NCBI GenBank assembly: GCA_036930585.1
Contig: GCA_036930585.1_3066.1
From: a phage
Direction: 5' to 3' (one strand)
Length of the DNA: 64,000 nt
Made by a program: the position numbers and the translations under genes. Under the pieces are notes generated by a model, which saw only the letters and a program-made list of their open reading frames with translations, had not been told where the DNA came from and searched no databases. This document shows positions 5,511 to 62,942 of the stretch, in pieces. Position 1 is the stretch's first letter, and every line of letters begins with the position of its first letter.

Positions 5511-5830
5511 CATTATGTTCAGATAAGGTCGTTAATCTTACCCCGGAATTATATCCAGCTGCATGTCACCATGCAGATCAGACTATATCTTCAACTTGTT
5601 AAAGCAAGTTGTCTATCGTTTCGAGTCACTTGACCCTACTCCCCAAAGGGATAGTCGTTAGGCATTTATGTAGAACCAATTCCATTTATCAGATTTTACA
5701 CGGTAAGTAACTAATCCTGATGAAATTATTAAAGGGTAGTCCTACAATTTAGCACGGGATTGTCTACTAGAGAGGTCCCCCGTTTAGATAGATTACAAGT
5801 ATAAGTCACCTTATACCTAGGCCTCAATTA
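5511..5830 (-). mobile_element. td group I intron, ORF-less (320 nt)
   Basis: Intron starts UAAUUGAGGCC after exon ...UUGGGU and ends ...ACAUAAUG; only the last ~23 codons of an I-TevI-like ORF (..GLVTYRVKSDKWNWFYINA*) remain. Confidence 0.85.
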
Positions 5831-6379
5831 ACCCAAGAAAACATCTACACTGCGTTGATACCATTGTAAATCAAGATAACCATTACGCACATTAAACTGA
5901 TAGAACATATGACAAGGTGGTAATGCCATATATTTAAGTTCAGCTGGATTCCACGCAGAAACAATTTGACGCCTATCACTTGGTAGTTTTTTAATACGAT
6001 CAATAACTTCTATAATTTGGTCTACACCGCCAAAATCGCGCCACTGTTTTCCATAAATTGGGCCAAGTTCACCACTATGGTATCCTAAATCTTTTGCCTG
6101 ATTTTCGTAATTTTCATCCCAAACTGTTTTGCCTTGGATTAACGAATCATGCTGAATTAATCGTAAATCATTGACATTTGTGCTTCCTGATAAAAACCAA
6201 AGTAGCTCAGCAATGCAAGCTTTCCAGGCGAGCTTCTTAGTTGTTACCGCAGGAAAACCTTTAGTTAAATCCCAGCGTAATTTAGTACCGAATAAAGCAA
6301 TTGTTCCTGTGCCTGTTCGGTCATCGGTTTCATAGCCATTTTCAAAAATGTCTTTAATTAAATCTTGGTATTGTTTCAT
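5831..6379 (-). CDS. td: Thymidylate synthase, exon 1
   Basis: MKQYQDLIKDIFENGYETDDRTGTGT... 183 codons; exons 1+2 give 286 aa. Confidence 0.9.
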
Positions 6380-7980: not shown

Positions 7981-8011
7981 ATAGTATCACACTACTACCC
8001 TGCTGTAAACT
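7981..8011 (-). promoter_or_regulatory. T4-type early promoter (GTTTAC -35, 17 nt, TACTAT -10)
   Basis: Minus strand reads GTTTACAGCAGGGTAGTAGTGTGATACTAT. Confidence 0.5.
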
Positions 8012-8441: not shown

Positions 8442-8669
8442 TTATTGTTCAATCATTCCCATGTAAAATTCTGTGTCTTCAGCATCCATACCATCACAAT
8501 ATTCATTAGCCATAAAGCGGGTGAGGTCTTCAAGAGGACCTTCAATAACGATTTGAATACTCCAAAACTTAGAATCTTGCACGCTTGTGATACTAAGTTC
8601 AGGATAACGATTACGAATAATCTCTTCAATATATTCAAAATCAACGATGTCAATATCAACTTTAGCCAT
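8442..8669 (-). CDS. Hypothetical small acidic protein (75 aa)
   Basis: Start moved to ATG 8669 (MAKVDIDIV...) with AAAGAGGAAAACAAT spacer; track N-terminal extension overlaps the upstream promoter. Confidence 0.5.
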
Positions 8670-8712
8670 ATTGTTTTCCTCTTTAATCATCAGCAGTATT
8701 GCCGATAGTTGT

Positions 8713-8743
8713 ATAGTACCATGGAAGAACAAGGATGTAAACA
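8713..8743 (-). promoter_or_regulatory. T4-type early promoter with A/T-rich upstream element
   Basis: Minus strand AAAATTTTTCACAAAACTGTTTACA-17nt-TACTAT. Confidence 0.6.
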
Positions 8744-8760
8744 GTTTTGTGAAAAATTTT

Positions 8761-8791
8761 TAAAATAAAAAAGGGGACCTCTAGGGTCCCC
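8761..8791 (-). terminator. Intrinsic terminator downstream of gene 32
   Basis: GGGGACC/GGTCCCC stem-loop followed on minus strand by UUUUUUAUUUU. Confidence 0.7.
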
Positions 8792-9722: not shown

Positions 9723-9800
9723 TTTTATTTCCTTTTTAATTTAATTAACAGTTGGTGCTATGACGATGTATGACCTCATAGCTGGTCAGTGAGATAATTA
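9723..9800 (-). promoter_or_regulatory. Gene 32 mRNA leader: autoregulatory operator (pseudoknot plus unstructured AAUUAAAUUAAAAAGGAAAUAAAAAUG)
   Basis: Sequence GCUAUGAGGUCAUACAUCGUCAUAGCACC... upstream of the gp32 ATG matches the known translational operator. Confidence 0.6.
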
Positions 9801-9805
9801 TAATC

Positions 9806-9813
9806 TATTTATA
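9806..9813 (-). promoter_or_regulatory. Late promoter TATAAATA upstream of gene 32
   Basis: Minus strand TATAAATA. Confidence 0.45.
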
Positions 9814-9821
9814 ATAAGCAA

Positions 9822-12012: not shown

Positions 12013-12042
12013 ATTATATACCATCCAAATCTTAAAGTAAAC
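12013..12042 (-). promoter_or_regulatory. Early promoter for rnh (GTTTAC -35, TATAAT-like -10)
   Basis: Minus strand GTTTACTTTAAGATTTGGATGGTATATAAT. Confidence 0.55.
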
Positions 12043-17087: not shown

Positions 17088-17092
17088 ACTGA

Positions 17093-17119
17093 GGGAGCCT
17101 TCGGGTTCCCTTTTTCTTT
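17093..17119 (+). terminator. Stem-loop (UUCG loop) plus U-run downstream of gene 35
   Basis: GGGAGCC-UUCG-GGUUCCC then UUUUUCUUU. Confidence 0.55.
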
Positions 17120-17149: not shown

Positions 17150-17800
17150 ATGGCTGATTTAAAAGTAGGTTCAACTGTGGGTGGATCTGTCATTTGGCAT
17201 CAAGGAAATTTTCCATTGAATTCAGCCGGTGACGATGTACTCTACAAATCATTTAAAATATATTCAGAATATAATAAACCGCAGGCAGCTGATAACGATT
17301 TCGTTTCTAAAGCTAATGGTGGTACTTACGCCGGTCCAATTACTATTAATTACGGGGTAAATAGTTATCTTCAATTAAGTAATAATGAAACCCCTATCCG
17401 AATTCGTTCTGATGGCGGCACTGGTAATACTCTTGTAGTTGGTGGCTCTTCTGGCGGTATTAGTTTTAGACCAGCAGGTAGTGAAATCACTACTGGACAA
17501 ATTACTATTACGCCAGAAGGTTTGACAACATTTACCAAAGCTGTAACGGCTCCATCTGTAACTGTTACATCTACTCCTTCCGCAGCATCTGATGTTACTC
17601 GCAAAGATTATGTTGATGGAGCAATAAATACTGTTACAGCAAATGCAAACTCTAGGGTATTACGCTCTGGAGACACTATGACAGGAAATTTAACTGCGCC
17701 AAACCTTTTTTCACAGAATCCTGCATCTCAACCTTCACACGTTCCACGATTTGACCAAATCGTAATGAAGGATTCTGTTCAAGATTTCGGCTATTATTAA
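17150..17800 (+). CDS. 36: Long tail fiber distal connector gp36
   Basis: 216-aa [32 protein letters not shown]... Confidence 0.9.
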
Positions 17801-17808
17801 GAGGACTT

Positions 17809-20754
17809 ATGGCTACTTTAAAACAAATACAATTTAAAAGAAGCAAAACTGCAGGTCAACGTCCTGCTGCTTCAGTATTAGCCGAAGGTGAATTGGCTAT
17901 AAACTTAAAAGATAAAACAATTTTCACAAAAGATGACTCAGGTAGTGTTATAGAATTAGGTTTAAAATATGGAGGAACTATAAATGGGTCTTTAGAGGTT
18001 ACAGAAAATATAACTGGAACTTTAATTGGAAATTCTAGCACAGCTACTAAATTGCAAACACCTAGGAAAATTAATGGTATATCTTTTGATGGGTCAAAGG
18101 ACATTACCTTAACTCCATCTGACATAAATGTCAATAGCACAACATTTATAAAAAATAATGGCGAATTACCTACTGATGCTAATTTAGATACGTATGGGCC
18201 CATTGAAGAATATCTTGGTGTTTGGTCGAAATCTACTTCAACAAATGCGCAACCAGCAAATAAATTCCCAGAAGAAAATGCCGTAGGTGTACTAGAAGTA
18301 TTTGTGGCCGGCCAATTTGCTGGCACTCAGCGTTATACTGTAAGATCTGGTAACGTCTATATTCGTTCCTTATCTGCTAAATGGAATGGCGTCGATGGTC
18401 CATGGGGTGTGTGGCGTAATGTTCAAGCGTCAACTCGTCCACTTTCACAAACGATTGACCTTGATAGCTTGGGAGAATTAGAACATTGTGGCTTATGGCG
18501 AAACAGTTCAAGCGCAATCGCATCATTTGATCGCCATTATCCAGAAGAAGGATCAGCCGCACAAGGATTTTTAGAAATATTTGAAGGTGGAAACTATTCT
18601 CGCACACAGAGATATACGACCAGATTTGGTGTTGTTTATACTCGTTGTCTCGCTGCTGCATGGGATGCTAGTGCACCTAAGTGGGAGGAATGGAAGCAGG
18701 TTGGTCATGGCACACCAGCGACTTTCTATGATGGAGATCTGAATGATTTTAAAACTCCCGGGTTATATAATATTTTAGGCACTGATGCCGTTATTAACTG
18801 TCCTACCGGTGAAGGTTTGCCGACTGTTATTGTTGGTTTGCTGGAAGTTAAACAGCGTGCTTCTGGTGGTGCTATTTTCCAAAAATTTACTACTGCCGGA
18901 ACAGGCGCAACTACTCGCGGACGTATTTTTGAGCGTGCATATACTGATGGTGCGTGGGGTGCATGGAACGAAGTATATACATCTTATTCTCTTCCAATTA
19001 CTTTGGGTATGGGTGGTATTAAAGCTCAATTAGCGGAGTTAGATTGGCAAACCTTTGATTTTGTTCCTGGTAGTATGTTTAGCGTTCCTTTGAACAAAAT
19101 AAAGAACATGCCAGCAAATATGGATTGGGGGACGATTGACGGAAACCTGGTTATGTTTTCCGTTGGTCCTAGTGAACACACTAGCACAGGGCGTACTGTT
19201 CAGGTTTGGCGCGGTACTGTATCCCAGACAAACTACCGTTATTTTGTCGTTCGTGTGTTCGGTAATTCTGGAAATAGAACTTGCACAGTCCGCCGTGTTG
19301 TTCTTGAAGACGGATCACATACTTGGACTGCTCAACAAAACTTTAGGGGATTGCTTAATATCACTGCTGCTGTTAATCTTGGTGCTAATCAGAAAATTTC
19401 ACTTGCTCCAGGAGCATATATTCAAGCCCCTGCTAGCGGTTCTGGTTCTAATACTTACGCAAATCAGAATACTACCATTGCGCCATTATATCAGGCTATT
19501 GACGATTCAAATAAAAACCAGTTTGCGCCAATTGTTAAACAGAAAAATACTGTAAGTAATATCACCTTTGCCACTGGTATGGCTATAGATACATCCGAAT
19601 ATAAGATCATTGCTCAGGGTGATTTATCCGCTGATGGAACAGCAGATGGGTTAAAACAGTGGACTTTCATGCCGTCAGGTTATTTTAAATCTCCAGGGCG
19701 TGTATATGTCGGTGATGCGTTCCTTAATACAGATGGTAATATTGCCGGTTCAATCTGGAAGAAATATAACAATGCGACAAATTTAGATGCTGCCTTGAAT
19801 ACTCGCGTAGGTAAAGGCGGTGATACGATGACAGGTCGGTTAACAATCAATGCACCTAATGATTCTATTGTATTATCAACGACTGCTAGTAATTCTTTGC
19901 ATATTCGTGGTGACATAGACGGGACTGGTAACTGGTATATTGGTAAAGGTGGTGCTGATAATGGATTAGCGTTCTATAGTTATGCTACTAATGCTGGTGT
20001 ATACATTACAAACGCAGGAGATATCTCGCTAAGTCCAAAGGGTGCCGAAACGGCTCAGGTCAATAACGTTCGATTATATATTCATGGTGAACGTTGGACC
20101 GCTAGTCAACCAGGTGATTGGGGCAACCAATGGCGAGTAGAAGCACCAATATTCGTTGATCATGGTTATGTTTCACAGGATTGTTATTATCCTATTCTTA
20201 AAGCAAGAAGCGTTATAGCCAATCAAGGATATAGCACCGCTGTTGACTTTGGTATGCGTCGTATTCCATCACAGTGGGGGCAAGCAATCATTCGTGTCGG
20301 ATCCACGGAGGCTTCTCCTGATGCTGGACACCCACAAGCTGTGTTTGAATTCCATCATGATGGATTCTTTTATACACCAGGAAATGGTAGCTTTAGCGAT
20401 GTGTATATTCGTTCTGACTCCCGTCTCAAGATTAATAAAGAAGAATTAGAATATGGAGCGGTCGAAAAAGTTTGCCGACTGAAAGTTTATATTTACGATA
20501 AAGTTAAGTCTATTAAAGACCGTAGTGTTATTAAACGTGAAGTTGGTATTATTGCTCAGGACCTTGAAAAGGAATTACCAGAAGCTGTATCTAAAGTTGA
20601 AGTTGATGGATCTGATGTTCTGACAATTTCTAACTCTGCTGTGAATGCTCTTTTAATTAAGGCTATTCAGGAAATGAGTGAAGAAATTAAAGAATTGAAA
20701 ACGCCTCTCTTTACTAAAATTGCTCGCAAAATTAGTAAATATTTTAAATTCTAA
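17809..20754 (+). CDS. 37: Long tail fiber distal subunit gp37, T2-like type with C-terminal intramolecular chaperone domain
   Basis: 981 aa; N-terminus [13 protein letters not shown]... conserved; diverges from T4 gp37 after ~50 aa; no His-box tip. Confidence 0.9.
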
Positions 20755-20760
20755 CAACAA

Positions 20761-20775
20761 GGGGGAAATGCCCCC
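20761..20775 (+). terminator. Short GC hairpin between genes 37 and 38 (weak terminator/attenuator)
   Basis: GGGGG-AAAUG-CCCCC followed by UUU only. Confidence 0.3.
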
Positions 20776-20790
20776 TTTGGAGTATAAATT

Positions 20791-21591
20791 ATGGCAGTAG
20801 TTGGTGTTCCTGGTTGGATTGGAAGTTCAGCCGCAAATGAAACAGGACAGCGCTGGATGAGTCAAGCGGCTGGTCAATTAAGATTGGGTGTTCCTTGCTG
20901 GATGAGTCAATTTGCAGGTCGCTCACGAGAAATTATTCACACGCTTGGAGCAGACCATAACTTCAATGGTCAATGGTTCCGAGATAGATGTTTTGAGGCA
21001 GGTAGTGCACCTATAGTGTTTAATATTACCGGAAATTTGGTATCATATTCTAGAGACGTTCCTTTATTCTTCATGTATGGAGATACACCTAATGAATATG
21101 TTCAGTTGAATATTGGTGGCGGCGTCCATATGTGGGGTAGAGGTGGACAAGGTGGATGGACCCATTCCGGCGGAAATGGTAATGGTCAACAAGGTGGTCA
21201 TTGTATTCAAAATGACATCGGTGGACGATTAAGAATTAATAACGGTGGAGTAATTTGTGGTGGAGGTGGAGGTGGAGGTGGTATCGCTTATCGTCCTCAC
21301 TCTGGTGCAAATTGGCAAGATATTGGTGGTGGTGGAGGAAGACCATTTGGCCCAGGAGGAGGCGGAGGTTATTCCGGCGGCGCAGCTTCTTATGATGGCC
21401 CAGGAGGTGGTTACCAATACGGAAATGCTCACTCTGGCCAGGGTGGTGGTGCCGGAGGAAATGGACAAAATGCCTGGTCTGATGGTGGTAAAGTTCTAAA
21501 AGTTGGAGCTGGTGGCGCTGCCGGATATGCTGTTATAGGATCAGCTCCAACATGGCAAAATGTTGGAGTAATATATGGTCCAAGAGTATAA
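20791..21591 (+). CDS. 38: Receptor-recognising adhesin gp38 (T2-type, glycine-rich motifs)
   Basis: 266 aa; [44 protein letters not shown]... with poly-Gly blocks. Confidence 0.85.
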
Positions 21592-21622
21592 TTTTGAATA
21601 AATACCCCTAAAAGGAGGGTCT

Positions 21623-22552: not shown

Positions 22553-22713
22553 TAACTATACCACTCAATTAGTTGACTTTGTTATAATATCATCAGACGC
22601 TTGATTTGTAAACTGGTCTGTGTTATTTTCTTCAAAAATTTTTTCTACGAATTCCTTGAACGACTTACGTTCCTGAGCTACATTATGCTCGATTACTTTT
22701 TCAAGATTATGAC

Positions 22714-24389: not shown

Positions 24390-25025
24390 TCACAGTTCAG
24401 ATGCTACAGTGATTACAGCTTCAATGTTTTCTGCCGAGCGTTTAATGTCAAGATACACATTACCGTTTTTAGCGAGTTTACATGACATTCCGATATCAGT
24501 AAATTTCTGAATATGATGTTCCATCATTTTGTATCCAAAAATTCGCATATTTCCATTATTGTTAATTTCAAAATTACGAATTCCGTGAGTGCGTTTTTCT
24601 AAAATAGCAAGATAGTTACTGCGGTAAGTTTCAACCTTTTTAAGAACAAATCCATTTTCATCTAAAAGTTTTAGCATAAGGTCTTTATCTTCTTCCATAT
24701 CGGAAGTAATCTCACGAGCTTTACGAGTTGCTCGTTTTTTCAGTAGTTCAGGAGCATTTTCCTGTGCGTATAAAGTTGCTGCATTTGAAATAATATCCTG
24801 AGCTTCACCAGTAATGATTAATCCATCACCAGATTTCTCCACCAGGCCTTTTTTAATCAATACCCCAATATTACTATTAACTACTGCGTTACCTAAATCT
24901 GGATGCACCTCACGAACTTCTGCGGCTGTAATGAAATCTTTCTTAGCAATGGTAATTAAAATCGCAGCAGTTTTTTCATTCAGAACATCGTTAGAAGCTT
25001 TGATGATGTAAGTTACTTTAGACAT
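24390..25025 (-). CDS. motA: Middle-transcription activator MotA
   Basis: 211-aa ORF MSKVTYIIKASNDVLNEKTAAILITIAKKDFITAAEV... Confidence 0.9.
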   Translation of the reverse strand: MSKVTYIIKASNDVLNEKTAAILITIAKKDFITAAEVREVHPDLGNAVVNSNIGVLIKKGLVEKSGDGLIITGEAQDIISNAATLYAQENAPELLKKRATRKAREITSDMEEDKDLMLKLLDENGFVLKKVETYRSNYLAILEKRTHGIRNFEINNNGNMRIFGYKMMEHHIQKFTDIGMSCKLAKNGNVYLDIKRSAENIEAVITVASEL

Positions 25026-25062: not shown

Positions 25063-25092
25063 ATAGTACCACAGTATGCTTTGGTTGTAAAC
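25063..25092 (-). promoter_or_regulatory. T4-type early promoter upstream of motA
   Basis: Minus strand GTTTACA-17nt-TACTAT with AAAATTTTTCACAAAAC upstream element. Confidence 0.6.
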
Positions 25093-25110: not shown

Positions 25111-25143
25111 TTGAAATAAAAAAGGGAGAGCCGAGGCTCTCCC
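25111..25143 (-). terminator. Intrinsic terminator downstream of gene 52 cluster
   Basis: GGGAGAGCC/GGCTCTCCC stem then UUUUUUAUUU on minus strand. Confidence 0.6.
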
Positions 25144-25148
25144 TAAAA

Positions 25149-28203: not shown

Positions 28204-28233
28204 ATAGTACCACGGAAGAACAGTCTTGTAAAC
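28204..28233 (-). promoter_or_regulatory. T4-type early promoter
   Basis: Minus strand GTTTACAAGACTGTTCTTCCGTGGTACTAT. Confidence 0.5.
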
Positions 28234-28418: not shown

Positions 28419-28682
28419 TCATAGTTCAATCTCAACGATTTCCAAGTGTTTTTGTTTTATTGCCTTTTTAACACAATCATGGACTAAATATGACCATGAA
28501 TCATTATATTCTCCATTAACTAATCGTTGGAGATCTTCACGTGATGATAAGTAAGGTTGATCTGATTCCCATTTTGATAAAAATACTGCAGTAAAAATAT
28601 CTCCTTCATCTGTAGTTGAAGTCGTAAATGCAATAAATTCACCGGTAATTTTATGTTTAGCGTAATAAAATTTAAATTTCAT
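28419..28682 (-). CDS. Hypothetical protein (87 aa)
   Basis: Start moved to ATG 28682 (MKFKFYYAKHK...) with GGAGGAG SD. Confidence 0.45.
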   Translation of the reverse strand: MKFKFYYAKHKITGEFIAFTTSTTDEGDIFTAVFLSKWESDQPYLSSREDLQRLVNGEYNDSWSYLVHDCVKKAIKQKHLEIVEIEL

Positions 28683-28709: not shown

Positions 28710-28739
28710 ATAGTACCACGGTCCTTGTGGTATGTAAAC
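28710..28739 (-). promoter_or_regulatory. T4-type early promoter
   Basis: Minus strand GTTTACATACCACAAGGACCGTGGTACTAT. Confidence 0.5.
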
Positions 28740-29592: not shown

Positions 29593-29610
29593 AAGGGCCG
29601 AAGCCCTTAT
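29593..29610 (-). repeat. 18-nt hairpin repeat AAGGGCCGAAGCCCTTAT (copy 1)
   Basis: Identical to 29821..29838; GGGC-UUCG-GCCC hairpin followed by U-run. Confidence 0.8.
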
Positions 29611-29611
29611 T

Positions 29612-29806
29612 TTATTTGAATTGTGCAATTCTTTTCTCTAGACATTCAGCATAAGATTTCATTGAGATAAACTGCGAAAGTAACAGTTCTTGCTCAACTG
29701 CATTAACTGTTAGAAACTTTGCGCTTTCTAAAAATTTGCTCAGTGCATTAATTTTGAGCATTAATTGATCGTATTCTTCTTTTACTCGTGCTTGATAACC
29801 TAACAT
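29612..29806 (-). CDS. Hypothetical helical protein (64 aa)
   Basis: ORF track; flanked by identical hairpin repeats. Confidence 0.5.
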   Translation of the reverse strand: MLGYQARVKEEYDQLMLKINALSKFLESAKFLTVNAVEQELLLSQFISMKSYAECLEKRIAQFK

Positions 29807-30784: not shown

Positions 30785-32962
30785 TTAGGCCGCAAGGGCC
30801 TTCATAGTTTTAGCGATTTGGGAAACTTCATCATCGCTTAAAGAATTGCGATAACCGATGAAGTCGGAAACAATACGGAATTTCTTGGTAAACTCAGCAA
30901 CCATTTTATCACTATTTTTTGAAGCATTACGTGATAATTCATCAAAGAGATTAGTTACTGTCCAGATATCATGACCGATGGTATCTTTTCCACCATTGAA
31001 ATACACACCGCGTAATGAACTAACCATATTACCAAGTCGTGTATATTCTTCAGAAACTTCATCTGTACTGAAGTACTTCATCATAAAATCTAGTTCAGGA
31101 TACTTGATAATTTTATCAATATATCGTTGAGCTGAACTTGAATAACCTACGTACTTATCATAATCTACATCATCAAAAGCATCTACATATAAATCACGCA
31201 GAGTTTCAAAAATACATTGGCACTGACCGAGTTCTTTTACCTTTTTCTGTAAAAGCGGACGAATAACATAAAATTCATTAATGCCAATAAGATTAGCCAT
31301 ACGAATCAAAATATTCATAGATGGATGACAAAGTGATGTAGTACCATCCATAGAGAAAATATCAGAACGATGCATATACGCTACATACCCAGTAATTTCA
31401 TCTGCTTCTGATGTGAGCGTAAATAATTCCTCTTTTTCCCAGCGCCCATCTTTAATTTCAAACTTAAATGCTGTAGCAGCTTTAGGACGAGGAGCTTTAC
31501 TTTTAACTACCTTTGGAATATAGCTTTTAACTAAAGCTTCGATTTCTGACAAATAATGAATGTTAACTTCATCACTTTCAAACATCGCCATAATATCAGG
31601 GAGTAAATCAATCTGCGATTCTACTTCTGGATTAATAAACAGAAGGCGTTCGTTGTGATGAATATTCAAAGTGTTATTAAATTCACTATCATCTAACGCA
31701 TGTGCTAATCCACGGACAATATTAACACGATTTTTAATATTATCAATAACGATATTAATTTTTGTTGCATTAATACCAAACAGACGATAACTTGATGCAA
31801 CGGCTGAAGTTTCATGACTTTGCTTAATGCGCTTCAGTCGAGGGTCAAGATTTACTTCATACACAACTCCTGCATTGCATAACTTACTATCAGGTTCAAA
31901 CATGCTTTGCATCTTCTTATATGACAGATTTTTAGTCGTAAATTTGACTGAATTACTAATCATATAATCTCGAGCAGAATACCCCATCTTCATCAATTCA
32001 CGATATGTATGACGGGGAGATGTGGATTCTTTAAATCGTTTTACATCTTCATTAAATGCTTTCTCACTGAGTTCTTTAACTCGTTCAATAATATTTTTAC
32101 GAGTACGATCATCCAGTGAAAGAGCCTCGCGAGATGGAGCAATATCAAGTGAACCCATTGGAAACTTAATGTAATTCACTTCATTGCGAATGCTTAGCCA
32201 GTTACGGTCTCTAATAACACCATCGATAGGATAAACAATACCGCCATAGATAGCATATAATCCACCACGATCAGGCCAGTATCTTTCTGGATTTACACCG
32301 TAATAGTCATCAAAATCCGGAAAATAATCAATTTCGCGGTCAAGACCATTAATGATAGCCAAATCTTTGAACGGTCGCATGATATAAGAAACTTCATAAG
32401 CAAAGTTTCTAAAGTCTTTTTCTTCAACTGGAACTACGATTTCAATACCAGTTTTATCATCTGGACCCATTTCTTTTACGAATGTAGGTTTAATCTGTGG
32501 GCCATCACCATCCATGTAAGCTACATAACCACGAATTTCACCTTTATGATACGAAGTAATACTAAATGTATCAGTATAACTAAACGGAGATTTAGAACCT
32601 AAACCAAATCCGCCAATAAAGTCATTAGATTCAGCTTTAGATGAACTGAAGTATGAATTATACAACCCAGGAGAATTATCATCACCTTGAATATCAAAAT
32701 CGCTCATACCTGGACCAAAATCTCGACAAACAAATCGCGGATCTAATCGTCCTGGAACTTGAATGATAAATTTTTCAGGATTTCCATTGAGAGCATGGGC
32801 ATCAATCATGTTGGTAATCAATTCACGGACTACTGCGCGAATCTTGTTTGTATACAAATCAGATGACAGAATTTTGAATACTTTAGGAGATGCTGTGATG
32901 CTAAATGCCTTTGATTTAGAACCATTGCCAAGAATTGTTTCTTTTTCAGTGGTGATAATCAT
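30785..32962 (-). CDS. rIIA: rIIA protein
   Basis: 725-aa ORF with GHKL ATPase-like N-terminal region. Confidence 0.95.
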
Positions 32963-32972
32963 AATTTCCTCA

Positions 32973-33176
32973 TTAATTCATATTGCGTTTAATAACTTCA
33001 GCAACTTCTAGTAATTCATCTTTAGTTGCGGTGTCGGATTGAATTTTATCTCTAATAGCCTTAAAGCGGTTTTTAAACTCTTCGGCTTCTCCCATATCGA
33101 AAAAGCGTTGAATGATTCTATATTCTCGATGAACTGCTTTATCAAAAAGTTCTAAATTTACTTTATATGATTTCAT
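32973..33176 (-). CDS. Hypothetical protein (rIIA.1-like, 67 aa)
   Basis: ORF track. Confidence 0.5.
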
Positions 33177-33201: not shown

Positions 33202-33231
33202 ATTATACCACATCCTTGTGGTAAAGTAAAC
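33202..33231 (-). promoter_or_regulatory. Early promoter (GTTTAC -35, TATAAT -10) inside 3' end of gene 60
   Basis: Minus strand GTTTACTTTACCACAAGGATGTGGTATAAT. Confidence 0.5.
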
Positions 33232-34562: not shown

Positions 34563-36093
34563 CTACTGTTATCCATTTACCATTAATCTGTACTTCATCA
34601 TTTTCATTTACGATAATTGTATCGCCATTTAGTTCGAAAGTAAACCACTCGCCATCTTCTTTTTCTTCAAACGCCTTTTCACCGAGAACTAATCCAGTGA
34701 TTGCGCAAATATCAAACAATTCTTTGTTTTTAAGCATATCAGCATATGACATACCCCAACTGTTGAGAACTTTACCGCGCAATGGATAACCACCATGAAG
34801 TTCTTTATCACGAACATCAATAAGATATCCGATAGCAGAATCACCCTCAGTCAAGAAAAGAGTAGTGTCAGCATCTTTACCGCAAAGATTCGCTTTAATG
34901 TGTTTATGAACCTTAGCTTTAGAAGCCTTTTTAGCTGCTTTAGTTTCTGCTGCCTTTTCTGCCGCCAATTTACGAGCCAAAGCAGCTTCAATAATCGGCA
35001 TTAGAATTGCTTCATTATTTAGAATAGCACGTGAAATCTTTTTAGCATCAAGTTGAATATGACTACGGATTTCACCAAATGGAGAAGTCAAACGCTCTTT
35101 AGTTTGAGAATCAAATCGCATGTTTTTCATATCACGGACAAACATAACGATAGTCAAACATTCTTTAACGCGTGCTTTAGTCACATCAATTTTGAACTTA
35201 CGTTTGATTTGTGGAATAAGGTCTTCACAAATATCATCCATAACACAGTCAATGTGATGGCCACCATTCTTAGTGTGAATGTTATTCACATAAGTTAATT
35301 GACGAAAACCATCCGGTGAACGACCAACCGCAATAGAGCAATTTTCTTGTTCTTGAACGATAGCATGTTCATCATATTGGCGTGCATATTTCTTAAAATT
35401 GCCCTGAACCTTTTTACCATTAAAGGTAAATTGAATATCAGGATAAACTACTGCAAGTGTCTGGAGACGATCTAGTGTAATGTCAAGATAAACTTGGGAC
35501 AGCTCATTAGTTTCAAATGACATAAAATCAGGAATGAAAGTAACACGAGTTCCTTTCCATTTTCCAGGAATAGTTTCCCATGATTTATTTTCCATGCCAT
35601 TTGAACAACGAACTACAATATTATTTTGACCATCACCAGTTTCACCGACAAACATCACAGAAAAAATGTTTGTCAAACTAGAACCAACACCATTCATACC
35701 ACCGGTGACACGTTCTTTATCATCACCAAAGTTACCACCTGCTTTTGGAATAGTCCAGGCAGCAACAGGACCAGGAATTTCTTCACCAGTAGGTGTTTTG
35801 ACCATCGCTTGTGGAATACCGCGACCGTTATCTTCAACTGTTACTTGATTGTTTTTAATAGTAACATTAATTTTATTTGCGAATTTAAACTTAGTACGAA
35901 TACCTTCATCTACTGAGTTATCGATAATTTCATCAATAAGCTTAACAAGACCAGGTACATACTGAACACTTTCCCATTTACCAAACAGAAAGCGCTCATG
36001 CATTTCATTAGCAGAAGAGCCAATATACATGCCGCTACGCTTTTTGATATGTTCAATATCGCTCAGAATTTTAATTTCATTCTTAATCATCAC
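34540..36093 (-). CDS. 39: DNA topoisomerase II large subunit gp39 (ATPase)
   Basis: 517-aa ORF with GHKL ATPase motifs (IDNSVDE, GxxGxG). Confidence 0.95.
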   Translation of the reverse strand: MMIKNEIKILSDIEHIKKRSGMYIGSSANEMHERFLFGKWESVQYVPGLVKLIDEIIDNSVDEGIRTKFKFANKINVTIKNNQVTVEDNGRGIPQAMVKTPTGEEIPGPVAAWTIPKAGGNFGDDKERVTGGMNGVGSSLTNIFSVMFVGETGDGQNNIVVRCSNGMENKSWETIPGKWKGTRVTFIPDFMSFETNELSQVYLDITLDRLQTLAVVYPDIQFTFNGKKVQGNFKKYARQYDEHAIVQEQENCSIAVGRSPDGFRQLTYVNNIHTKNGGHHIDCVMDDICEDLIPQIKRKFKIDVTKARVKECLTIVMFVRDMKNMRFDSQTKERLTSPFGEIRSHIQLDAKKISRAILNNEAILMPIIEAALARKLAAEKAAETKAAKKASKAKVHKHIKANLCGKDADTTLFLTEGDSAIGYLIDVRDKELHGGYPLRGKVLNSWGMSYADMLKNKELFDICAITGLVLGEKAFEEKEDGEWFTFELNGDTIIVNENDEVQINGKWITVGELRKNL

Positions 36094-36161: not shown

Positions 36162-36429
36162 ATTTAAAACGAATAGTCGAATCCTTGAAGAATAGTCCAG
36201 AACATACTGTTCCTTCTACTTTCTGCCCAGTAGGTCCAATAGCACGAAATCCAGTACGCTGGAAATCATTTTCAGAGCAACCGAACCAATTATATCCAGT
36301 GATTTCAATATTAGTAAAACCACTTGAAGACAAAACTTTGGTTGCATTATCAGCATCAGTACATCCTATTAAAGACACTGCTAATACTAATGCTGCGATA
36401 GAACGATTAATATATTTCATAATTTTCAC
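36160..36429 (-). CDS. Putative lipoprotein (89 aa)
   Basis: Signal peptide with lipobox LIGC. Confidence 0.5.
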   Translation of the reverse strand: MKIMKYINRSIAALVLAVSLIGCTDADNATKVLSSSGFTNIEITGYNWFGCSENDFQRTGFRAIGPTGQKVEGTVCSGLFFKDSTIRFK

Positions 36430-37610: not shown

Positions 37611-37779
37611 AATTTCCTCATTAATTGAACATTGGAGCGATGCGTTTCAGAAGAGTAGCAGCACCTTTGGCAAATTTTCCATTTTATTCTCCAAGTTGTT
37701 TTCTGTATCAGTAGTTGATATTGATATAGTACCATAATCAACTACTGATGTATATAGTTTTATGAAAAAATTTTAAACT

Positions 37780-38271: not shown

Positions 38272-38316
38272 AGTTATCTCTCACTTGTTAAAAAGATTTT
38301 ATACTCCACAGGACCA

Positions 38317-38345
38317 TTATACTCTGGTCCCAAGAGTTTGTAAAC
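38317..38345 (-). promoter_or_regulatory. Early promoter upstream of motB (GTTTACA-17nt-TATAAT)
   Basis: Minus strand GTTTACAAACTCTTGGGACCAGAGTATAAT. Confidence 0.6.
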
Positions 38346-39420: not shown

Positions 39421-39450
39421 ATAATACCACAACTAACCGAGGAAGTAAAC
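39421..39450 (-). promoter_or_regulatory. T4-type early promoter
   Basis: Minus strand GTTTAC...TATTAT. Confidence 0.45.
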
Positions 39451-44363: not shown

Positions 44364-44430
44364 GATAGCCTCCGTATACTTCAGAAGCTATCATATCATC
44401 GTTAGAAAGGAAAGTAAACAACTTTTTGAA

Positions 44431-46465: not shown

Positions 46466-46493
46466 AGCGCTCTCCTCTATAAGATAATTCTAT

Positions 46494-46523
46494 TATACCA
46501 TACTCATTTTGGAAAGTAAACCA
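46494..46523 (-). promoter_or_regulatory. Early promoter (GTTTAC -35, TGnTATAAT extended -10)
   Basis: Minus strand GGTTTACTTTCCAAAATGAGTATGGTATAAT. Confidence 0.5.
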
Positions 46524-46527
46524 TTTA

Positions 46528-46554
46528 AATGAAAAAGGACTCCCGAAGGAGTCC
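46528..46554 (-). terminator. Intrinsic terminator downstream of soc
   Basis: GGACTCC-UUCG-GGAGUCC then UUUUUCAUUU on minus strand. Confidence 0.6.
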
Positions 46555-46580
46555 TTGAATTATTAACCACCAGTTACTTT

Positions 46581-46808: not shown

Positions 46809-46876
46809 GTAATTCTCCTTTTATTTAAATTACATGATTATTTATAATAAATTCTCGCGGCTTTTAAGACGAGCTG

Positions 46877-47392
46877 TTAATAACCTCGGTCTTGACGTTC
46901 AAAATTATGTTTGTTTTTCAAATAATAAAGTTTAAAGATTTCTTCCGCATTCATTCCAAGGCCAGCAAACATATTTAATACGAAATGAAATATATCCACA
47001 AGCTCAAATTTAATTTCGAGCTGATCTTCTGGGGACATTTCATCAATGCGTTTTTCTTGCGCTTCAATATAACGTGCTTTCCATTTTTTCCAAACTGCCG
47101 ATGCATCTTTTTCACCACGTGACATTTCACCAAGAGAAGTCAGAAGTTCGCGGAATTCATCGTCAATGCAGTCTTTTTGTTCACGCATCCAAGAAACAAC
47201 ATCACCGGCAGTTTCTAATTTATCTGGATGATAGCAGTATTCGCGGTCATTTGCTAAACGAATCTGCAGAGATTTCTGCATGTCAAGCATTACCTGCAGC
47301 GGGTCTTTTTCATCACCGAGAATATCCCAATATTCATTTTGAGCTTTATCAGCGCCTTCGATCAGTTGACTACATTCGTTAAAGTAAGCCAT
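46877..47392 (-). CDS. 56: dCTPase/dUTPase gp56
   Basis: 171-aa product from ATG 47392 (MAYFNECSQ...). Confidence 0.8.
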   Translation of the reverse strand: MAYFNECSQLIEGADKAQNEYWDILGDEKDPLQVMLDMQKSLQIRLANDREYCYHPDKLETAGDVVSWMREQKDCIDDEFRELLTSLGEMSRGEKDASAVWKKWKARYIEAQEKRIDEMSPEDQLEIKFELVDIFHFVLNMFAGLGMNAEEIFKLYYLKNKHNFERQDRGY

Positions 47393-49573: not shown

Positions 49574-49738
49574 TTACTCTTCTTTTTCTTTAGATTCCTC
49601 TTTTTTCTTTTTAGGAATCTGTTCAGGACCTTTATTTACTACAGCGCCTGACGTTGTTCCAGTAGAGATATTTTCAGGACTACCACCTGAATCTCCAGCG
49701 ACCATATCTTCTTTGATAAATTCTTTATATGTTTTCAT
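49574..49738 (-). CDS. Hypothetical protein (61.1-like, 54 aa)
   Basis: MKTYKEFIKEDMVAGDSGG...; TAATATG junction with upstream gene. Confidence 0.45.
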   Translation of the reverse strand: MKTYKEFIKEDMVAGDSGGSPENISTGTTSGAVVNKGPEQIPKKKKEESKEKEE

Positions 49739-49784
49739 ATTAACCTCTATTCATAAAAGCATTAAAAATTTGGTCATCAATAGA
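49736..49784 (-). repeat. 49-bp direct repeat, copy 1 (3' end of the 61.2-paralog plus RBS/start of 61.1)
   Basis: 37-nt perfect match plus 12 nt with 2 mismatches to 50094..50142. Confidence 0.85.
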
Positions 49785-50096
49785 TGGCGCAGTAATATTT
49801 TCTGCATCATTTAGCAAATCATTAATTTCATCAGATAGCATAACACACGTACCTTTATTTCCTGTAATTGTTACTGCACAATTACGAACGTTTTCTTTAT
49901 CAAATTTTAGGTTAATATTTTCATAGTGAAAATCCTTTAATGCCGAATATATCTTTAAAATGAAATTGTCTTTTACTACAATAAACCCAACCTCACTATT
50001 AAAACGCGGTTCATGGAAACTGTAATAAACCTTTTCATCTATAAAATCGTATGAAATTTTTTCCATTTTTAAATATGAAAATTCAGAACTATACAT
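49740..50096 (-). CDS. 61.2-like single-domain paralog (118 aa)
   Basis: Homologous to C-terminal half of 61.2 (…EVGFIVVKDNFILKIY…) and identical last 13 aa SIDDQIFNAFMNRG. Confidence 0.6.
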   Translation of the reverse strand: MYSSEFSYLKMEKISYDFIDEKVYYSFHEPRFNSEVGFIVVKDNFILKIYSALKDFHYENINLKFDKENVRNCAVTITGNKGTCVMLSDEINDLLNDAENITAPSIDDQIFNAFMNRG

Positions 50097-50142
50097 ATTA
50101 ACCTCTATTCATAAAAGCATTAAAAATTTGATCGTCAATAGA
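50094..50142 (-). repeat. 49-bp direct repeat, copy 2 (3' end of 61.2 plus RBS/start of the paralog)
   Basis: See copy 1. Confidence 0.85.
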
Positions 50143-51025: not shown

Positions 51026-51085
51026 GATAATCTCCTCAGTAGTTTATGTTTATATAGTATCTCAATTTCCAACAAAAGTAAATAG

Positions 51086-51555: not shown

Positions 51556-51586
51556 TACTATACCATAGTCTTGTCAGCTTGTAAAC
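51556..51586 (-). promoter_or_regulatory. T4-type early promoter upstream of dmd
   Basis: Minus strand GTTTACAAGCTGACAAGACTATGGTATAGT. Confidence 0.5.
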
Positions 51587-57596: not shown

Positions 57597-57845
57597 TCAA
57601 ATGCAAGTAGTAATTACTCCAGTAGTGCTTATGCAGGTATTACCCATTTGCACACCTAAAGATCCATTTGTATTCACATGAAGATTATCATCAATTTTAA
57701 CTGATATTTTACCATTAGTGTGAATAACGGTGCTAGATTCAATCACAGGTTGAGTATCATTTTCAACACTAACAAATGGAACTGCTGCTAATGCAACTAA
57801 ACAAACTGCTAAGCATCCCATAACAATTTTCATTTCATTCTCCAA
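57597..57845 (-). CDS. Small secreted/membrane protein (82 aa)
   Basis: N-terminal signal-like hydrophobic segment. Confidence 0.45.
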   Translation of the reverse strand: MENEMKIVMGCLAVCLVALAAVPFVSVENDTQPVIESSTVIHTNGKISVKIDDNLHVNTNGSLGVQMGNTCISTTGVITTCI

Positions 57846-57870
57846 ATCCGTATCAGTAGTTGATAGTTGT

Positions 57871-57900
57871 ATAGTACCATAGAAGAACAGGGATGTAAAC
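57871..57900 (-). promoter_or_regulatory. T4-type early promoter (near-identical to copy at 8713..8743)
   Basis: Minus strand AAAATTTTTTCACAAAACTGTTTACA-17nt-TACTAT. Confidence 0.6.
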
Positions 57901-57980
57901 AGTTTTGTGAAAAAATTTTTAGGGAATCCAAAGGGTCCAGAATCATCTCTTTTTCATAAGTATAGATTTATATTACTTGT

Positions 57981-58005
57981 ATGAAAAAGGGACCTGGAGG
58001 TCCCT
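57981..58005 (-). terminator. Intrinsic terminator downstream of gene 43
   Basis: AGGGACC-loop-GGUCCCU then UUUUUC. Confidence 0.6.
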
Positions 58006-61950: not shown

Positions 61951-62910
61951 TCACTTCCACTGCATTTCACATGCTAATTGAATGAAAAGATAAGCTAGAT
62001 GCAATTCAGTATTAGCTGCAATACCATGATACTGATTATTTTCGCCGACAATTTCGTACATACGAATAATACTCGGTGGAGTTACACGTGAATAGATTTC
62101 TTCGGCAAGTTTACCCACGAACCACGAATAATCGGCTGCATATTTTGGTGCTAAAGCTCTGAGTTGTTTAACATCTTTATTTTTGAGAGACTCAAGAACA
62201 TCATCAATAGCACCACGATCGTTAGTAACCAGTGATAAAATACCAGCATCCAAAACACCTTTAGATGAATAACTATCGAGCTCGCCAATAGTTTTACGAA
62301 AATCAGGAAAATTCTTTTTAACCAAAGCTGCTACAACTTTCATATCAGCTATAGCAATTCCTTCATGCTTACAGATTTCAGTCAATCGACGAATCATCTG
62401 CTTCATCATTTCAATTTTATCTTCATCGGTCGGTTGACCGAACGTAATAACTCGGCAGCGTGACTGAAGTGGTTTAATAATACCATCAATATTATTAGCA
62501 GTAATAATAATACTACAGTTTGAACTATAAGCTTCCATAAAGGAACGAAGATGTCGCTGAGATTCTGCTAAACCTGAACGGTCAAATTCATCAATAACGA
62601 TTACTTTTTGACGACCATCAAATGAAGCGGCGCTGGCAAAATTAGTCAAAGGACCACGAACGAAATCAATTTTACAATCTGAACCATTCACAAACATCAT
62701 ATCAGCATTTACATCATGACACAATGCTTTTGCTACAGTTGTTTTACCTGTTCCTGGAGAAGGAGAATGAAGAATAATATGTGGAATCTTACCTTTACTT
62801 GTAATAGATTTAAAGGTTTCTTTATCAAAGGCGGGAAGAATACATTCATCGATAGTAGATGGACGATATTTCTGTTCAAGAATGTGTTCTTTTTCATTTA
62901 CGGTAATCAT
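61951..62910 (-). CDS. 44: Clamp loader ATPase gp44 (AAA+)
   Basis: 319-aa product from ATG 62910 (MITVNEKEH...); Walker A SPGTGKTT. Confidence 0.9.
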
Positions 62911-62942
62911 AATTTCCTCATTCAAGTTTTAGTGTAAATTAT

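Follow-up and report, generated by a model that had tools for sequence, protein, structure and literature searches.

The intergenic region between gene 32 and frd.3 includes positions 8,713 to 8,791 of the window, by which we mean the whole 64,000-nucleotide stretch of phage DNA (GenBank assembly GCA_036930585.1) analyzed here. Read along the minus strand, it runs from the gene 32 stop codon through GGGGACCCTAGAGGTCCCC, TTTTTTATTTT, AAAAATTTTTCACAAAACTG, TTTACA, a 17-nucleotide (nt) spacer and TACTAT into ACAACTATC...GAGG...ATG. The following features can be placed on it:

8773..8791 (minus strand): hairpin after gene 32, GGGGACC-CUAGA-GGUCCCC, -14.3 kcal/mol, a putative terminator with the gene 32 stop about 23 nt upstream
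8762..8772 (minus strand): T-run TTTTTTATTTT of this putative terminator, adjoining the A/T tract of the promoter
8745..8761 (minus strand): UP-element-like tract AAAAATTTTTCACAAAA of the frd.3 promoter, near-exact in the copies at 57899, 25091 and 28738
8713..8741 (minus strand): predicted core early promoter of frd.3, with -35 TTTACA at 8736-8741, a 17-bp spacer, TG at -15/-14 and -10 TACTAT at 8713-8718; T4 orthologue at 146,874
near 8706 (minus strand): predicted +1 of the frd.3 promoter
8667..8712 (minus strand): frd.3 start region ACAACTATC, with a 37-nt leader, Shine-Dalgarno sequence GAGG and the ATG of frd.3 (phrog_1764)

Genomic setting of the window

BLAST placed the window in Tequatrovirus; several T4-like phages of Escherichia and Yersinia are 98-99% identical to it. 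The stretch is collinear with T4, running from T4 position 137,404 across the origin of that record to 32,955. The minus strand carries early and middle genes (nrdB ... frd, 32, 59 and rnh; asiA ... motA, ndd, denB, rII, 39, motB, dda, modA/B, 61, 41, uvsX, 42, imm, 43, regA, 62, 44 and 45). Late genes on the plus strand comprise the tail-fibre genes 34-38 and t.

Departures from T4 include the distal tail-fibre region (genes 36-38; 17331-21598, plus strand), which is swapped and nearer to the T6/PST type with a gp38 adhesin, and mobile-element differences at 5559-5840 (minus strand), 1054-1651, 2325-2381, 9785-9821 and 46846-46877. The T4 genes mobE/nrdB.1, segG and segF are absent from the window. 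Within nrdB, 596 bp (1054-1651) that presumably represent its intron are shared by the window and T4 and are absent from T6 and PST. The sole match in an Rfam scan of the window at gathering thresholds was the td group I intron (RF00028), and the promoter cassettes gave none; at the site of the I-TevI open reading frame (ORF), roughly 690 bp are lacking.

Census of predicted early promoters

The first-pass annotation had listed 12 minus-strand copies of an early promoter of T4 type. All 12 exist where it placed them, each coordinate marking the end of the -10 hexamer (measured ends: 7981, 8713, 12013, 25063, 28204, 28710, 33202, 38316, 39421, 46492, 51557 and 57871). Matches to GTTTAC-N15-19-TANNAT number 14 in the window, all on the minus strand, compared with 1.45 expected, and none of 100 shuffled sequences reached 14. 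A weight matrix built from the clear promoter copies gave 16 minus-strand sites and no plus-strand sites, the maximum score in shuffled sequence being 4.6. Four of these sites go beyond the earlier list: 44390 (modB), 37726 (cef), 51054 (sp, weak) and 22584 (asiA, weak). The two weakly scoring sites have their -35 ends at 51082 and 22612, and the latter lies within a coding region. Two matches to a loose pattern (34616-34645 and 36289-36318) fall inside coding sequence and below the weight-matrix threshold and were taken as chance occurrences, and a generic sigma-70 scanner was uninformative on the window (86 matches versus 73 expected). Besides the frd.3 copy, the predicted promoters are:

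7981..8009 (minus strand): frd.1 early promoter, subfamily B, 732 bp downstream of the copy at 8741
12013..12041 (minus strand): rnh early promoter, equivalent to T4 Pe148.6 and 100% identical to it over 120 nt
22584..22612 (minus strand): weaker promoter-like site in asiA.1, upstream of asiA
25063..25091 (minus strand): motA early promoter, subfamily A
28204..28232 (minus strand): ndd.4 early promoter, subfamily B, with a CTGTTCTTCC-type spacer, 506 bp downstream of the copy at 28738
28710..28738 (minus strand): early promoter after denB, equivalent to the T4 ndd.6 promoter, subfamily A, heading an 87-aa ORF here
33202..33230 (minus strand): rIIA.1 early promoter
37726..37754 (minus strand): early promoter upstream of cef, with -35 TATACA, subfamily A-like flanks and a 109-nt leader
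38316..38344 (minus strand): motB early promoter
39421..39449 (minus strand): motB.2 early promoter
44390..44418 (minus strand): modB early promoter
46492..46520 (minus strand): mrh.2 early promoter
51054..51082 (minus strand): weaker early-promoter-like site upstream of sp
51557..51585 (minus strand): dmd early promoter, with -10 TATAGT, adjoining the gene 41 stop
57871..57899 (minus strand): early promoter after gene 43, equivalent to the T4 imm.1 promoter, the closest paralogue of the copy at 8713-8741

Promoter anatomy and correspondence with T4

The -35 hexamer is TTTAC(A/T) at 15 of the 16 sites (TATACA at cef), and the spacer measures 17 bp at every one. The -10 hexamers are TACTAT, TATAAT, TATTAT or TATGAT, with TATAGT at one site, and 12 sites have the extended -10 TG at -15/-14. 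Over the 25 nt upstream of the -35, A+T content ranges from 56 to 88% across the 16 sites. Leaders of 19-38 nt with a GGAG/GAGG-type ribosome site at the end follow 14 of the 16, and at 10 the stop codon of the preceding gene is found 0-25 nt from the -35.

T4 has an orthologue at the matching intergenic position for all 16 sites (upstream of imm.1, dmd, sp, mrh.2, modB, motB.2, motB, cef, rIIA.1, ndd.6, ndd.4, motA, asiA, rnh, frd.3 and frd.1), with the same consensus, spacing and strand as the T4 early (Pe) promoters. There is no difference in kind from that class; the departures are allelic and lie in the spacers of frd.3 and, in part, imm.1 and in the leaders of motA and ndd.6. At the site ending at 12041, the predicted +1 falls at T4 150,727, where the map drawn for Pe148.6 has its boundary. 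Primer extension has confirmed Pe148.6 as a promoter, with activity at 1 min after infection (PMC6024815), and it is the only one of the 16 T4 orthologues tied to a cited mapping experiment. The T4 records NC_000866 and AF158101 carry no promoter or terminator features, and no genome-wide 5'-end mapping in T4 was found in the collection of papers searched.

The 16 sites are very probably sigma-70-dependent early promoters of a T4-like phage, each heading a minus-strand early transcription unit. The earlier label of T4 early promoters was correct, given the fit of the anatomy, the presence of a T4 orthologue for every site and the identity of the 12041 site with Pe148.6. That they might instead be middle (MotA/AsiA-dependent) or late promoters is extremely improbable. 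A -35-type hexamer of the GTTTAC kind stands at 17-bp spacing at every site, and the -10 hexamers are sigma-70-like, unlike the T4 late-promoter motif (TATAAATA). Several of the downstream genes do also have middle promoters in T4 (PMC2988021 Table 1), but no MotA box, given in PMC2988021 as (a/t)(a/t)TGCTT(t/c)a and centred at -30, is seen in the aligned copies, and the early activity of the Pe148.6 orthologue (PMC6024815) likewise speaks against this assignment.

T4 early promoters have been described as 'uber' promoters that combine UP, -35, TGn and -10 elements with further consensus regions (PMC2988021). As early promoters, the sites would offer host RNA polymerase an A/T-rich UP element, a GTTTAC(A/T) -35, a 17-bp spacer ending in TG and a TA(C/T)(A/T)AT -10, and transcription would begin about 7 nt downstream of the -10. 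The resulting transcripts would carry a GGAG/GAGG ribosome site of the kind cut in T4 early mRNAs by RegB, which cleaves GGAG in early translation initiation regions (PMC3014915). The sequence itself shows the anatomy, strand, placement and T4 orthology of the sites and, as set out below, likeness beyond the consensus and mosaic alleles; from it we infer promoter activity in the window phage, as well as the terminator activity and recombination mechanism considered below.

Hairpins and putative terminators

Three further hairpins lie near promoters:

25123..25144 (minus strand): hairpin after motA.1, with a 9-bp stem, loop CUCG and a T-run, -18.8 kcal/mol, z -4.6, 32 nt before the -35
46535..46556 (minus strand): hairpin after soc, with a true C(UUCG)G loop, -15.1 kcal/mol, z -4.9, 15 nt before the mrh.2 -35
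57988..58005 (minus strand): hairpin after the gene 43 stop, GGGACC-UCCA-GGUCCC followed by T5, -12 kcal/mol, 84 nt upstream of the -35

The minus strand has four strict terminator-like hairpins, three of them with a promoter 15-32 nt further on, and the folds listed here are stable. A GC stem with a short loop and a T-run after a stop codon occurs in strict form at 8773-8791, 25123-25144 and 46535-46556; the T-run at 57988-58005 is shorter than at these three. It is reasonable to regard a GC hairpin with a T-run after a stop codon as a putative intrinsic terminator, and the orthologue of the 8773-8791 hairpin is annotated as a 'putative transcriptional terminator' in NC_054917 (a computational annotation in one public record).

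Promoter and stem-loop share one intergenic region at frd.3, motA, mrh.2 and, loosely, imm.1; the remaining 12 promoters lack this arrangement, and the stem sequences are not alike. The first-pass annotation had proposed that several promoters sit just downstream of stem-loops. This holds for 3-4 of the 16, although the hairpin at 57988-58005 is as far as 84 nt upstream of its promoter. Its broader description of the copies as promoter/stem-loop modules fails for most of them, with 12-13 of the 16 promoters having no stem-loop. The three hairpins that it named are real and lie roughly where it put them, but none has the UUCG loop ascribed to it (the loops are CUAGA, CUCG and UCCA). C(UUCG)G loops do occur elsewhere in the window, at 46535-46556 after soc, at 29593-29608 and at 17091-17112 (plus strand). 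The original report of C(UUCG)G hairpins is said to be that of Tuerk et al. in 1988. UUCG hairpins were first found in bacteriophage T4 mRNA (PMC4371310), and this T4 origin probably explains the error.

At the loci after gene 32, motA.1, soc and gene 43, the upstream unit would be closed off by the GC-rich hairpin and T-run before the promoter begins, so that hairpin, T-run and promoter would together form a composite terminator-promoter module. Promoter-coupled terminators, in which termination and start sites lie no more than 35 bp apart and the stem-loop DNA serves as the -35 (Fletcher et al. 2026 preprint), similarly combine terminator and promoter in one short intergenic region, and in the window the T-run adjoins the UP-element tract. 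We rejected membership in that class: the hairpins end 15-32 nt before the -35, or about 55-70 nt before the predicted +1, and the window promoters have a -35 of their own.

Two further features of the hairpins were observed. The hairpin at 29593-29608 (AAGGGC-UUCG-GCCCUU), near the denB.1 boundary, has T-rich tails on both strands and no early promoter after it, and is a possible bidirectional terminator. The loop of the putative motA.1 terminator (25123-25144, minus strand) is inverted between phages while its stem is unchanged: the window shares GAGCCTCGGCTC with some contigs, T4 (near position 29,700) and contigs of PST type have GAGCCGAGGCTC, and one has CCTTGG. This inversion looks like the product of quasi-palindrome template switching.

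Likeness among copies beyond the consensus

The copies at frd.3 and imm.1, which the first reading had singled out as almost identical, are indeed so: 8704-8761 and 57862-57919 are 95% identical over 58 ungapped nt, and a gapped alignment gives a block of about 60 nt with two mismatches and one indel. In an unbiased repeat search, the promoter family was the top dispersed repeat in the window, with seven copies of 58 nt and four of 90 nt that reach through the leader to the start codon.

As a control, bases were permuted within alignment columns (2000 trials), which keeps the consensus and breaks the linkage between positions. The best pair has 60 of 75 matches, compared with a permuted maximum of 54, and so exceeds all 2000 controls; the fifth-best pair has 52, compared with a permuted maximum of 47 for that rank. 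Between the frd.3 and imm.1 spacers, 12 of 14 positions agree (p about 0.0065). For a subfamily of copies, then, similarity extends beyond the shared consensus. Subfamily A (frd.3, imm.1, motA and ndd.6, with cef more loosely) has the form AAAAATTTTT(T)CACAAAAC.GTTTACA ... TGGTACTATACAACTATC, its UP element carrying AAAAATTTTT(T)CACAAAA, and subfamily B (ndd.4 and frd.1) has the form AAAAAGT.GTTTACA ... TACTATTACCCTATCAA.

One explanation of this likeness is purely regulatory: selection would hold early promoters near a single optimal polymerase-binding sequence, and recombination would play no role. The most conserved columns are in fact known polymerase contact elements (PMC2988021), 11 of the 16 promoters keep locus-specific spacers unchanged across four phages, and indel junctions show no clear enrichment at the cassettes, as detailed below. 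Against this stand the excess over all consensus-preserving permutations, together with the matching spacer pair, and the existence of several discrete spacer types, one of them at different loci, in place of one optimum. The frd.3 locus itself has two spacer types among flanks that are otherwise at least 95% identical. We consider the purely regulatory explanation rather unlikely, although the spacer shared as CTGTTCTTCC could be functionally selected rather than exchanged. The reading that we favor leaves to the shared and unusually long functional consensus the task of accounting for likeness among the copies in general. For the subfamily of five (frd.3, imm.1, motA, ndd.6 and cef), it would add common descent and occasional short-patch homologous exchange.

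Mosaic alleles and proposed exchange between copies

The frd.3 promoter is only 88% identical to that of T4 because the 17-bp spacer differs (TCCTTGTTCTTCCATGG, of the imm.1/ndd.4 type, in the window versus AGCATAAAGCTTTATGG in T4). The neighbouring sequence is 96-100% identical, and orthology with T4 extends over the hairpin, T-run, UP tract, -35, -10 and leader. Both alleles are widespread: at a minimum of 95% identity, phage records number 316 for the window type and 78 for the T4 type. In IMG/VR contigs, the T4 frd.3 spacer type is also found at another locus, and the frd.3 locus has either type. The underlying scan for the subfamily A pattern returned 24 stretches in about eight T4-like contigs, which shows reticulation and is too small a sample for statistics. 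Part of the imm.1 spacer also differs from T4, and the motA and ndd.6 leaders differ from those of T4, T6 and PST from immediately after the shared ACAACTATCA. By an objective criterion, mosaicism affects three of the five subfamily A promoters versus one of the 11 elsewhere, a marginal difference (Fisher p = 0.063).

These mosaic patches show that some exchange between the most similar cassettes does occur. As a tentative explanation, short-patch gene conversion may swap spacers and leaders between loci tens of kilobases apart within the frd.3/imm.1/motA/ndd.6/cef subfamily, whose near-identity extends over about 60-90 nt; we think this possible, with the balance somewhat against it. If it holds, such conversion would have created a population-wide polymorphism, with two frd.3 alleles in about 316 and 78 phage records, and T4-like phages would offer a natural system for studying ectopic conversion tracts and the effect of the spacer on promoter strength.

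Promoter cassettes and gene-content differences

Promoter-early stem-loop (PeSL) elements were first described in RB49 and phi1, where reporter assays were run and mini-circles detected by inverse PCR (Arbiol et al. 2010, PMC2839356), and a T4/PST PeSL consensus of TTTACW-N17-TAYWAT has been given with the ndd.4/ndd.5 locus as an example (Comeau et al. 2014, PMC4122927). The window resembles these systems in its intergenically repeated series of A/T tract, early promoter, stem-loop, ribosome site and start codon, in its match to the T4/PST consensus and in the variability of the ndd.4-ndd.6 locus that the PeSL authors highlighted. It differs in the small share of promoters with a stem-loop (3-4 of 16) and in the apparent absence of indel-junction enrichment relative to gene boundaries. 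The reading favored above, of a long common consensus joined in one subfamily by descent and occasional exchange, is the view already put forward for PeSLs.

Compared with T4, T6 and PST, the window shows about 23 distinct synteny events, of which about seven involve homing endonucleases or introns and about three are tail-fibre replacements. Only three of the 23 or so have an edge in a cassette, all of them among the approximately 14 small-ORF events. The chance rate is about 29%, given that about 16 of about 100 gene boundaries carry a cassette (about 16%) and that events are two-edged. In this comparison, which has low statistical power, cassettes are not enriched at small-ORF indel junctions relative to random gene boundaries. 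Two of the three indels have an edge inside the ndd.6 cassette (an 8-codon remnant of the 87-aa ORF in T4, and an extra ORF269 in PST), and the third has an edge inside the imm.1 cassette (an extra 78-aa ORF in the window phage). Several other ORF insertions lie at promoter-less boundaries with short direct repeats of their own. The first-pass suggestion that the modules are recombination hotspots for shuffling small genes agrees with the proposal of the PeSL papers (PMC2839356, PMC4122927), and patches of exchange are present, but with three of about 14 indels at cassettes a hotspot role in the window is only weakly borne out.

Another reading treats the cassettes as actively mobile: a dedicated recombinase that recognizes stem-loops would cut out and integrate PeSL mini-circles, and these would carry small ORFs between genomes. 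PeSL-joined mini-circles have been detected by inverse PCR in RB49 and phi1 (PMC2839356), the only phages for which they have been shown. In the window, tandem cassettes flank small ORFs (28738 and 28232, 506 bp apart; 8741 and 8009, 732 bp apart), and the two indels at the ndd.6 cassette are independent. The scarcity of stem-loops and their unlike stem sequences are hard to reconcile with such a recombinase, and the majority of ORF indels fall at gene boundaries that lack a promoter and carry short repeats of their own (for example, the 49-bp repeat at 49736/50094). No recombinase has been implicated, and the PeSL authors themselves allow general homologous recombination as the mechanism (PMC2839356). 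Active mobility is quite improbable in our estimation. A caution applies to the reading of this 64-kb span: the cassettes explain only a minority of the gene-content differences between close relatives, and a larger part is due to homing endonucleases and to short repeats at gene starts.

The ORFs and repeats at these junctions have features of their own. The 87-aa ORF after the denB promoter (28419-28682, minus strand; phrog_2390) shares its last six codons with the T4 remnant MKIAEIEL* (T4 33000-33025). The sequence ATGAAAATCGCT upstream of T4 ndd.6 may represent imm.1 codons imported by exchange with that cassette, and a simple loss of internal sequence from the 87-aa ORF through microhomology would account for it about equally well. 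The 78-aa ORF (57597-57833, minus strand; phrog_4189) lies between the imm.1 promoter and imm.1 and has a signal-peptide-like N terminus (MKIVMGCLAVCLVALAAV...). It is absent from T4, T6 and PST and present in three IMG/VR loci (two contigs), and both it and imm.1 start with ATGAAAAT.

The 49-bp direct repeat (49736-49784 and 50094-50142, 96% identical) flanks a 118-aa ORF (49740-50096, phrog_4122) that is absent from T4, T6 and PST; this insertion is bounded by duplicated gene-start sequence and has no promoter cassette. A 46-nt repeat (32929-32974 and 62877-62922, 83% identical) joins the start of rIIA to what is apparently the start of gene 44, covers the ribosome site and first codons in both, and is possibly a shared translational operator.

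Use for annotation

Published work already covers T4 early promoters, terminators located downstream of genes such as 32, and the shuffling hypothesis for PeSLs. For annotation, the present analysis fixes 16 predicted early promoters and four to five putative terminators in the window genome and corrects the UUCG detail. Early-promoter repeats of 40-60 bp can also be mis-annotated as prophage attachment sites. In the T6 record AP018814, automatic 'attL' and 'attR' features at 24507-24546 and 166589-166628 coincide with the positions of the imm.1 and ndd.6 promoter cassettes, as judged from the flanking genes rather than the feature sequences. In this virulent phage, a 40-bp promoter repeat has apparently been mistaken for prophage attachment sites.
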